A stretch of DNA of 64,000 nt, taken from an uncultured delta proteobacterium. GTDB lineage: Bacteria; Desulfobacterota; Desulfarculia; JACQYL01; CAWGVV01. The notes under the pieces were generated by a model. That model was not told where the DNA came from, did not search any database, and saw only the letters and a list, made by a program, of their open reading frames with translations. The DNA lies in the NCBI GenBank assembly GCA_963826125.1, contig CAWGVV010000002.1, positions 873,964 through 937,963 of the forward strand, in the 5' to 3' direction. This document shows positions 21,954 through 23,963 of the stretch, in pieces. The translations under genes were made by a program, and so were the position numbers. Numbering within the stretch: position 1 is the first letter of the stretch; the number at the start of each line of letters is the position of its first letter.

Positions 21954-23963
21954 ATGTTCTTCAAGAAAACGTCCGAGACCGGCACCGAGAAGGAAGAGGA
22001 GAGCCAGGAAATACAGGACCTCCGTAAGTCGGTGGAACAGGCGCGCATGCCCGACCGGGTGAAGACGATCGCCGGGAAGGAACTGGAGCGGTTGGCCAAG
22101 ACCGACCCCTCCCTGGCCGAGTACGGCATAGGACTGAACTACCTGGAATTCATCCTCTCCCTGCCCTGGGAGAAGTCGTCCAAGGACAACCTGGACTTGT
22201 CCCGCGCCGAACGGATCCTCGACGAGGAACACTACGCGCTGGCTCCGGTCAAGGAGCGGGTGCTCGAATACCTGGCGTCCAACATAAAGATCGGGTTGAA
22301 ACCCACCCGCATGATGGTGGTCGACGACGAAAAGATCGCCCTGGAGAACGTGGCCTACGCCCTACGCAAGGAAGGCCATGAGGTGCATACGGCGGAAAAC
22401 GGCCAGGAGGCACTGGACATTCTCCGGCAGTTCGATTTCGACCTGGTGGTGACCGACCTCAAAATGCGGAACGTGGACGGTATGCAGCTGCTGGAGCGGG
22501 TCAAGGCGGAATCGCCCGAGACGGAACTCATTCTGGTCACCGGGTACGCCACCGTGGACACCGCCGTCGACGCTCTAAAGAAAGGCGCGGCCCAGTATCT
22601 GCCCAAACCGTTGAACCTGGATACCCTGCGGCAGTCGGTGAACGAGATCCTCGAACAGCGGCGGAAGGTTCACGTATCCCAGGGGCCAGTGCTCTGCTTT
22701 GCCGGACCTCCGGGCACGGGCAAAACGTCCATCGGCCGATCCATCGCCAAGGCCCTGGAACGGAGTTTCATCCGCGTGTCGGTGGCGGGACTCCGGGACG
22801 AAGCGGAAATGCGGGGACACCGCCGCACCTACGTGGGGGCCATGCCGGGAAGGATTCTTTCCGAAGTCCGGCGCATAGGGGTAAACAATCCGGTGTTCAT
22901 GCTGGACGAACTGGACAAAATCGGTCAGGACTTCCGGGGAGACCCCGCGTCGGTCCTACTCGAGGTGCTGGACCCCGAACAGAACAAACGCTTCCTGGAC
23001 CATTACGTGGACATTCCCTTCGATCTGTCCCGCGTGATGTTCATCACCACGGCCAATGCCATCGAACGGCTGTCCCGACCTCTTCTGGACCGGATGGAGG
23101 TCATCCACTTTTCCAGCTACACCTTGCGGGAAAAGTCGTCCATCGCTTCGCATTATCTGGTTCCGCGCCAGCTCAAGGCCAACGGGTTGTCTCCCCGTGA
23201 GGTGGAGTTTTCAAGGGAGGCGCTGGACAAGATCATCGGCGACTACACGGACGAAGCGGGCCTCCGGAACCTGGAGCGGGAAGTGGGGAGTGTCTGCCGC
23301 AAGGTGAACCGCCTCCTGTTGCAGGACCGCCTCAGCCTTCCGAAAAAGGTGGAAGCGGCCGACGTGGAAGCGCTCCTGGGACCGCCGCGGTTTTCCCGGC
23401 TGTCCGCTTCCGATGCACGCGTTGCGGGCGTCACCACGGGGCTGGTATGGACGGAACACGGCGGCCACGTCATTTATGTTGAAACGGCCCGGATGAAGGG
23501 CCAGGGAAAGCTCATCATGACCGGTTCCCTGGGGGAGGTGTTGAAAGAGTCCGCCCAGACCGCCCTCAGCCACATTCGCAGCAACGCAGCCGAATTCGGC
23601 ATCGATCCCGAATTTTTCGAAACGAGCGACGTCCACGTCCACATTCCGGCCGGCTCGATCCCCAAGGACGGTCCCTCCGCGGGGGTCACCATCGCCATGG
23701 CCCTGGTTTCGTTGCTCACCGGCAAGCCGGTGCGCAAGGGGGTCGCCATGTCCGGGGAGCTCACCCTGAGCGGCCGGGTGCTGCCCGTGAGCGGCTTGAG
23801 GGAAAAACTGCTGGCGGCGCAGCGTGCGGGTATCTCCACGGTGATCCTGCCCGCGGCCAACGCCACGGAGATCGCCGCTTTGGAACCCGACGTGCGTACC
23901 GCAACGAACATTGTCCAGGTGGAAAACTTCCGGGGAGCGGTACAAAACGCTTTGTCGGAATAG
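21954..23963 (+). CDS. lon: ATP-dependent Lon protease lacking the Lon N-domain, with a response-regulator receiver (REC) domain inserted between the conserved pre-AAA helix and the Walker A motif
   Basis: …[11 protein letters not shown] | REC ([10 protein letters not shown] … [14 protein letters not shown] … LVTGYAT … [11 protein letters not shown]) | [16 protein letters not shown] … MLDELDK … Lon_C with KDGPSAG Ser and downstream Lys; start at ATG MFFKK (GGGGGA RBS), alternative ATG at 21894. Confidence 0.8.
   Translation: [669 protein letters not shown]

Follow-up and report, generated by a model that had tools for sequence, protein, structure and literature searches.

A Lon protease with an internal receiver domain and its genomic setting in an uncultured delta proteobacterium

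The DNA analysed here is a stretch of 64,000 nucleotides (the window) from an uncultured delta proteobacterium (assembly GCA_963826125.1, contig CAWGVV010000002.1), in which a forward-strand gene was found to encode a Lon-type protease with a receiver (REC) domain built into its polypeptide, termed REC-Lon. An intergenic region with palindromes and promoter-like elements separates this gene from a divergent operon coding for a weakly USP-like protein (p184), a protein with two transmembrane (TM) helices (p149) and a TauE/SafE anion transporter (Table 1). A first-pass annotation, made from the DNA letters, had proposed a Lon in which a REC domain is inserted ahead of the AAA+ module and the Lon N domain is absent; this architecture was borne out by Pfam and by alignment with solved structures in the PDB.

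Table 1. Features of the REC-Lon locus. Positions are those of the window, except for the last six rows, which refer to the related loci named there.
Feature	Position	Strand	Description or basis
REC-Lon coding sequence	21954..23963	+	669 aa plus stop; probable orthologue of the DVU3303-type response-regulator Lon
Lon helical pre-AAA domain	21999..22298	+	aa 16-115, five helices; LonA ~247-340
Inserted REC domain	22308..22673	+	aa 119-240; Pfam, NtrC1 matches, AlphaFold2 fold
AAA+ module and Lon lid	22692..23327	+	aa 247-458; Pfam, PDB alignment, residues
Lon_C (S16) proteolytic domain	23346..23957	+	aa 465-668; Pfam E 1.2e-75
GTTGC-N5-GCAAC palindromes	21740-21754 (one mismatch), 21819-21833, 21843-21857		presumed DVU3305-type regulator sites
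σ54-type promoter TGGCACGCAAATTGA (-24/-12)	21650..21664	-	faces divergent operon; one mismatch to TGGCAC-N5-TTGC
σ70-like promoter TTGACA-17-GAAAAT	21861..21889	+	10/12 matches, consensus match only
p184, first divergent gene	21111..21617	-	168 aa; start with Shine-Dalgarno; called as 168 aa in source genome
p149, second divergent gene	20637..21086	-	149 aa, two TM helices, p184-type N-terminal motif
TauE/SafE anion transporter	19446..20525	-	359 aa, Pfam TauE E 6.9e-34; DVU3299 counterpart
USP-like/two-TM fusion, L004	6754-7683	-	
USP-like/two-TM fusion, L005	6970-7740	-	
USP-like/two-TM fusion, L006	5671-6387	-	
USP-like/two-TM fusion, L007	6973-7737	-	
USP-like/two-TM fusion, L008	6859-7677	-	
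USP-like/two-TM fusion, L011	2393-3313	-	

Architecture and start of REC-Lon

Domain positions refer to the 669-aa product; the Pfam run was made on the 748-aa open frame, the numbering of which is added in brackets. Response_reg was assigned to aa 121-229 (200-308) with E 2.4e-28, AAA to aa 247-386 (326-465) with E 2.1e-23 and Lon_lid to aa 408-458 (487-537), followed by Lon_C (544-747). LON_substr_bdg (PF02190) gave no Pfam match, even across the 748-aa open frame. The NCBIfam model TIGR00763 'lon' ('endopeptidase La') matched REC-Lon in two stretches with a score of 706.8 against a cut-off of 608, and the E. coli-type Lon model NF008053 scored 554, below its cut-off of 891.

A sequence search of the PDB aligned residues 16-109 of the query with residues 247-340 of Thermus Lon and residues 242-649 with 351-757 (7p6u); residues 16-109 also aligned with 2-99 of 3m6a. 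The breaks in the 7p6u alignment imply that about 132 residues of REC-Lon occupy the place of about 10 LonA residues, close to the roughly 9 displaced E. coli Lon residues of the first-pass annotation. The best solved matches of the insert itself were to the NtrC1 receiver (1ny5, 1zy2, 4l4u), and no solved structure found in this search combines receiver and Lon parts. Lacking the PF02190 domain, retaining only the segment at about 247-340 of the LonA N-region and scoring below the cut-off of NF008053, REC-Lon is derived from LonA (subfamily A of MEROPS S16) without being a canonical LonA.

The segment ahead of the insert had been described as the Lon pre-AAA helix. A Lon segment is indeed retained there, but it is a five-helix domain of about 95 residues and not a single helix. 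In the AlphaFold2 model (mean predicted local distance difference test score (pLDDT) 81, predicted template modelling score (pTM) 0.67) its helices comprise residues 18-29, 34-49, 55-69, 82-92 and 97-115. The domain corresponds to the C-terminal part of the helical N-region of LonA together with helix α0, and P71, W72, H93, K100 and R102 are invariant in an alignment of 35 family members. Helix 97-115 precedes residues 119-240, which are modelled as a (βα)5 fold; together with the Response_reg match, this answers the check for a REC fold in the inserted region. Helix α5 of the receiver (222-240, 19 residues) ends five residues before strand β1 of the AAA+ module (246-250).

The functional residues named in the first-pass annotation for the receiver, the Walker A and B motifs and the Ser-Lys dyad were all located at their expected places. 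In the receiver, these are D124 and D125 in VVDDE, the phospho-acceptor D168 in VVTDLKM (codon 22455-22457), T196 in LVTGYAT and K218 in YLPKP. The AAA+ module carries Walker A (G251-T258), Walker B (D318/E319), the pore-loop residue Y293, N368, R380 and R438, all invariant, and the proteolytic domain carries Ser575 in PKDGPSAG (codon 23676-23678) and Lys618 in GLREKLLAA (codon 23805-23807). In the 35-member alignment the AAA+ and Ser-Lys protease residues are all kept, and the receiver, Walker and dyad residues are invariant, as is Y215, which forms the Y/T switch pair with T196.

Compared with canonical LonA (E. coli, Thermus, Meiothermus, B. subtilis; 6u5z, 7p6u, 7fd4, 3m6a, 4ypl), REC-Lon shares the pore loops, the Walker motifs, the equivalents of R380 and R438, the Ser-Lys dyad and a collinear helical segment before the ATPase. 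Unlike LonA, it has neither a LON_substr_bdg N domain nor the long coiled-coil helix, and the 132-residue receiver stretch replaces the residues between α0 and β1. Its N-terminus coincides with the start of N-truncated LonA constructs that were solved as hexamers (4ypl, 3m6a).

On the forward strand, an open frame of 748 aa spans 21717 to 23963, within which translation from the ATG at 21954 yields 669 aa. In the public gene call (P0001, 689 aa) the start was placed at 21897, 20 codons upstream of the conserved N-terminus of the family. The start at 21954 is the likely one, since it matches the N-terminus MxFF(R/K)K that is conserved in the alignment of members, and since the upstream portion of the 748-aa frame holds the regulator-site palindromes and the σ70-like promoter. 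As position 21897 lies only about 8 nt past the -10 hexamer of this promoter, the public call is probably overlong. An alternative upstream start including an N domain, which the first-pass annotation had considered, was sought in the Pfam scan of the 748-aa frame and was not seen. An annotation artefact, be it a true start far upstream with a normal Lon N domain or a gene fusion or frameshift, could draw on the frame being open from 21717 and on the database call at 21897, but is refuted by the 748-aa translation without a LON_substr_bdg match, by the MxFF(R/K)K N-terminus kept across the family, by the palindromes and promoter-like site in the upstream 237 nt beyond which the next gene is divergent, and by the identical architecture in at least 120 sequence clusters.

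A BrxL-like role in anti-phage defence was also considered and rejected, because PADLOC revealed just generic Lon-domain similarity, with BrxL matching only in part, over the Lon_C region, at 59.5 bits; none of the neighbouring genes had a hit.

The REC-Lon family, its intergenic region and its divergent operon

All of the best 120 database hits (59-66% identical) have the same set of domains as REC-Lon and are, like it, about 670 aa long, so that the family, as counted on these hits, comprises at least 120 sequence clusters. Its members are named 'endopeptidase La', 'S16 family serine protease' or 'response regulator' in the databases, and the nearest relatives among the protein matches listed belong to Desulfovibrionaceae and Desulfocurvibacter. 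A scan of species-representative genomes revealed 16 loci (L002-L017) with the insertion, the remaining loci being canonical LonA. Carriers were found in two phyla, Desulfobacterota and Nitrospirota, namely in Desulfovibrionaceae, Syntrophobacteraceae, Desulfococcaceae, Desulfonema, Desulfomonilaceae, Desulfobulbales and Desulfocapsaceae as well as in Thermodesulfovibrionales and other Nitrospirota. Clustering at 50% left little more than a single full-length representative (P0129) and some fragments, which indicates a compact orthologous group recently derived from LonA; REC-Lon and LonA are about 50-55% identical across the AAA+ module, the lid and the proteolytic domain.

Two sets of candidate relatives were rejected. 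The Firmicutes locus L047, for which the match length had suggested a receiver-bearing Lon, was identified by Pfam as a canonical LonA with LON_substr_bdg and without REC. The long, high-scoring proteins P0130-P0138, examined as REC-rich relatives, are tandem-AAA+ Lon proteins, none of which has a receiver. In P0130, P0131 and P0133-P0138 (889-1379 aa), a lone Lon_C follows a tandem array of two or three AAA+/Lon-lid modules; P0138 carries an N domain too, and one protein of P0130-P0138 has duplicated Lon_C domains instead of tandem AAA+ modules. In the representative search, the tandem-AAA+ Lon proteins scored above canonical LonA.

The tentative earlier view that an internal REC insertion is not a described Lon architecture did not hold, given the size of the family in the databases and a published member. 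In Desulfovibrio vulgaris, DVU3303 was described as a response regulator "containing a lon protease" that forms a three-component system with the kinase DVU3304 and the σ54 regulator DVU3305 (Rajeev 2011, Genome Biol 12:R99); in the supplement of that study it is listed as 'ATP-dependent protease La, truncation'. DVU3305 was reported to bind at its own operon and at the divergent operon DVU3302-3298, which encodes membrane, hypothetical and UspA-type proteins; the system genes were induced by high pH, heat and stationary phase, and orthologues were noted in other Desulfovibrio species, Thermodesulfovibrio, Thioalkalivibrio and Dechloromonas (Rajeev 2011). In fitness assays, the genes DVU3303:DVU3305 showed pairwise cofitness values above 0.9, and their mutants gained fitness in chlorate, a condition in which the mutant of the target transporter DVU3299 lost fitness (-2.3) (Trotter 2023, Front Microbiol 14:1095191, PMC10102598). 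A Lon classification paper and a survey of serine-protease domain architectures do not mention a receiver-bearing Lon, and we found no publication that spells out the insertion topology, i.e. helical domain, then REC, then AAA+.

The motif GTTGC-N5-GCAAC, searched with at most one mismatch, has just the three matches of Table 1 in the 64 kb, all of them within 118 bp. Shuffled sequence yielded 2.24 matches per 64 kb, from which rate the chance of three within 118 bp was estimated at about 4e-5. Among the related loci L001-L017, 14 of 17 have palindromes ahead of the REC-Lon gene. The supplementary list of sites for DVU3305 orthologues (Rajeev 2011) shows the same motif, with an identical GTTGCAAAAAGCAAC; the entry GTTGCAAAAAGCAACA contains the window site at 21843 exactly. 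A σ54-like element on the minus strand accompanies the palindromes in most cases, often with the TGGCACG-N4-TTGA shape of the window element, which recurs in L002, L005, L008 and L016. On the opposite side, the σ70-like promoter begins 4 nt downstream of the last palindrome. A σ54 promoter for the REC-Lon gene itself was rejected, as the lone candidate (TGG-N11-GC at 21882-21897) has the wrong spacing. The layout of the window agrees with the D. vulgaris assignment of a σ54 promoter to DVU3302-3298 and of none to DVU3303-3305 (Kazakov 2015, BMC Genomics 16:919).

The first divergent gene product, p184, comprises an N-terminal helical motif (AAAAFAEAGQW) followed by a weakly USP-like domain, and has homologues in related loci; a search of a large protein database with p184 returned just p184 itself. 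The USP-likeness is weak: hhalign compared the p184 domain with Usp at a probability of 50% and E 1.7e-4, and Pfam supplied a single hit among eight members. The second product, p149, had no Pfam match and ends in a basic RPRPTLRA tail. A p149-type two-TM gene is found beside REC-Lon in 15 of the 17 loci L001-L017 and in the two nearest relatives (L082, L083), and the TauE gene occupies the same position, with 62-75% identity, in 15 of these 17 loci and likewise in L082 and L083. A divergent operon with TauE and the small membrane protein accompanies REC-Lon at 16 of the 19 related loci (L001-L017, L082, L083). Divergent TauE and two-TM genes were seen at none of the 63 canonical-Lon loci of the same scan.

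In Syntrophobacterales and Desulfobacterales loci, the counterparts of p184 and p149 are fused into proteins of 240-310 aa (Table 1), which argues that p184 and p149 act together at the membrane; the N-terminal motif is absent there. This motif of about 28 aa (..KLE...AAVAFAEAGEW.TA.E.M) is common to p184 (21530-21617, minus strand) and p149 (20999-21086, minus strand). A hidden Markov model of the motif had matches, frequently two at one locus, in 11 of 20 REC-Lon loci and in none of the 63 canonical-Lon control loci; beyond the window, it occurs in divergent-operon proteins of L001, L002, L003, L009, L010, L012, L016, L082 and L083. One member has a weak TPR_6 match, and in some loci the motif forms a stand-alone protein of 48-60 aa. 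Several motif and two-TM proteins end in basic RPRxxL(K/R)A-like tails (RPRPTLRA, RPRATLNA, RPRPSLKA, RPRPRVSV), which were observed in p149 (20637-20672, minus strand) and also in L002, L003, L009, L010 and L083.

A HAMP-HisKA-HATPase kinase, a REC-σ54-HTH regulator, or both, are encoded within 10 kb of REC-Lon at 19 of 19 related loci (L001-L017, L082, L083). At L006, the kinase is missing and the regulator is represented by its C-terminal half only; the placement of the pair varies from locus to locus, being downstream convergent, downstream co-directional or beyond TauE. The family thus has a linked candidate for the histidine kinase, which the first-pass annotation had called unidentified, and only the window has neither kinase nor regulator gene within its 64 kb. 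Here, the downstream neighbours of REC-Lon are a carboxyltransferase gene and a gene for a HATPase_c_2-GNAT protein.

From architecture, synteny and the shared cis motif, with DVU3303 compared by its description, REC-Lon appears to be an orthologue of the DVU3303-type Lon. In both, a single polypeptide combines REC with an N-truncated Lon, the divergent operon codes for hypothetical or membrane proteins and an anion transporter, GTTGC-N5-GCAAC sites lie in the shared intergenic region, and a σ54 promoter is found on the divergent operon only. Unlike in the DVU3303 system, the kinase and σ54 regulator genes are not adjacent in the window, a tandem-Usp gene is missing, a GntR/FCD gene follows TauE instead, and p149, with its 149 aa, unites the small motif protein with the two-TM protein. 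The architecture is therefore already known, with genetic data, from DVU3303, and the gene of the window is a further member of that family. Points specific to the window are the insertion topology spelled out above, the sisterhood of the receivers described below and its status as the sole locus among 20 without kinase and regulator nearby, even though the DNA sites have been kept.

Several further observations were made in the vicinity. The HATPase_c_2-GNAT gene (25795-27291, minus strand) encodes a 498-aa protein with an RsbW-like HATPase_c_2 and a GNAT acetyltransferase domain; it is not a histidine kinase, and a related gene occurs in L043. Just past TauE lie the GntR/FCD regulator gene (18278-19030, minus strand) and TRAP transporter genes (DctM, DctP; 12134-15096, minus strand); GntR/FCD and DctP genes are also found near the REC-Lon module in L082, which may be coincidence. 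In D. vulgaris, DVU3305 additionally targets the TRAP transporter operon DVU2822-2825, and the presence of TRAP genes in the window may again be coincidental. A 398-aa frame opposite TauE (19395-20591, plus strand) is a high-GC shadow open reading frame and no gene.

Receiver kinship and the proposed control of proteolysis

The receiver of REC-Lon from the window scored 94-131 bits against the receivers of the cognate regulators versus 59-81 bits against other receivers in those loci, and a profile of the cognate regulators matched it at 1.3e-39. Over 18 loci, the identity between Lon and regulator receivers was 47% within a locus versus 44.5% between loci (permutation p 1e-4); this comes close to the identity of Lon receivers among each other (53.5%) and of regulator receivers among each other (51%). 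An α1 consensus 'IAR.N' and a consensus in the α4-β5-α5 region are common to both. At the level of sequence, the Lon receiver is the sister of the receiver of the partner σ54 regulator. Most simply, this kinship would mean that a copy of the partner regulator's receiver entered lon and that one kinase still serves both, as sister receivers suggest.

We consider it probable that REC-Lon, as a DVU3303-type Lon, is the proteolytic output of a conserved stress module of one kinase and two regulators and is controlled by its REC domain. Architecture, conservation, synteny, cis elements and receiver kinship are observed here; that one kinase serves both receivers, how and in which direction the switch works, and what is degraded are inferences. 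The lon precursor would have lost the β-rich substrate-binding N domain while keeping the last ~95 residues of the helical N-region, and REC would have been inserted between helix α0 and strand β1 of a fully competent AAA+/Ser-Lys protease. The HAMP histidine kinase would phosphorylate the σ54 enhancer-binding regulator, which would then bind the GTTGC-N5-GCAAC sites and fire the promoter of the divergent operon (USP-like, two-TM, TauE); the same kinase would phosphorylate the sister receiver inside the Lon protein. Phosphorylation of D168 is predicted to shift the α4-β5-α5 face of the receiver, whereby ring assembly or ATPase activity may be switched, as in receivers of the NtrC1/DctD type. 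Proteolysis would thus be tied to the same signal as transcription, and the likeliest targets would be module components or regulators, resulting in turnover or negative feedback.

Phospho-control of REC-Lon proteolysis is likely, judging from the conserved receiver residues. Since α5 of the receiver runs into β1 and Walker A, and by analogy with the NtrC1/DctD kind to which this receiver belongs, we think it most likely that phosphorylation governs the assembly of the ring or the activity of the ATPase. In the σ54 regulators of this kind (1ny5, 1zy2, 4l4u), the receiver is likewise directly N-terminal to AAA+ and joined to it via α5. Unlike in these regulators, the AAA+ module of REC-Lon is Lon-type and not σ54-interacting, a DNA-binding domain is missing, the junction from K218 to Walker A amounts to about 33 residues, and the Lon helical domain precedes the receiver. 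The opposite signs of the chlorate fitness of the D. vulgaris system and of DVU3299 suggest that the net effect of the module on the transporter is negative. This would fit degradation of module components, although polarity or other members of the regulon may also explain it.

Several points weigh against this interpretation. Phosphorylation of the receiver and its effect on proteolysis are predictions, and linker residues 238-242 have pLDDT values below 50 in the AlphaFold2 model, so that the model does not fix where REC lies against the ring. The excess of within-locus receiver identity is small, and a genome composition common to both genes may account for it. Polar transposon insertions within an operon may in part underlie the cofitness of DVU3303 with DVU3304/5, and the gain of the system mutants in chlorate, set against the loss of the DVU3299 mutant, is not predicted by a purely activating system. 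Finally, a profile search of all six frames of the 64 kb revealed no kinase, σ54 regulator or further receiver, REC-Lon being the sole match; the regulator of this genome was not among the best 120 hits of a query with that of the nearest relative, a list from which the D. africanus regulator is likewise missing.

The alternative that survives best, yet appears unlikely, is that the receiver serves as a phosphate sink or competitor which tunes the σ54 regulator, the protease being constitutive and devoted to general quality control. It would be compatible with the two receivers being near-identical in the kinase-facing α1, with AAA+ and protease residues that look constitutively competent, and with the solved hexamers of LonA constructs truncated at the same start residue (4ypl, 3m6a). 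A sink would have no need, however, for a placement in the α0/β1 junction of the ATPase or for an invariant α4-β5-α5 face, and the fusion has been kept across two phyla at an identity of at least 50%.

Rather unlikely is a second alternative, in which the phosphorylated REC replaces the lost N domain as a receptor for substrates or adaptors and tethers motif-bearing targets to the pore. Binding of phosphorylated CheY to the N-terminus of FliM is a model for such tethering of a peptide by a receiver. The absence of the substrate-binding N domain would leave room for this role, and two divergent-operon proteins of the window start with the AAVAFAEAGEW motif, which has the REC-Lon-specific distribution given above. 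The co-occurrence may simply reflect the shared operon, however, and binding is a prediction; as the motif is missing from the Syntrophobacterales and Desulfobacterales loci, where the parts are fused, it is no universal recognition element or Lon tag. A specific form of this proposal, which we likewise regard as doubtful, holds that phosphorylated REC recognises the N-terminal AAVAFAEAGEW tag and/or the basic RPRxxL(K/R)A tails of the divergent-operon proteins and thereby acts as an induce-then-degrade pulse generator. If so, a single kinase signal would first induce the small proteins via the σ54 regulator and then license their destruction, and would in this way control a TauE-type anion exporter.

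It is quite improbable that the receiver is a degenerate, phosphorylation-independent structural domain for oligomerisation or docking in a remnant system devoid of its kinase. The window, as the one locus of 20 without a nearby pair, and the best 120 regulator hits, among which none from this genome is listed, would fit such a remnant. The residues D124, D125, D168, T196, Y215 and K218, though, are present here and invariant in the family, and the palindromes (two of them perfect) and the σ54 promoter are retained, which argues that the partner regulator is still encoded elsewhere in the genome.

Implications for the family

Receivers are known to couple two-component signalling to degradation or to a hydrolytic site in other settings. 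RssB and CpdR act with ClpXP in trans, as separate adaptor proteins, and CheB is a receiver-gated hydrolase in cis that is not a protease of the Lon kind. In contrast to RssB and CpdR, the receiver of REC-Lon is built into the protease's own polypeptide. If the preferred interpretation of REC-Lon as the receiver-controlled output of a kinase module is true, the protein would be a single-polypeptide link between histidine-kinase signalling and ATP-dependent proteolysis, as opposed to the trans adaptors.

For annotation, neither a truncated nor a generic 'endopeptidase La' describes the gene, which belongs together with the divergent TauE operon and the σ54 control region. D. vulgaris gives genetic access to this compact and conserved family, whose kinase, regulator, DNA motif and target operon are known or predictable; phospho-gating of an AAA+ protease would therefore be directly testable here.

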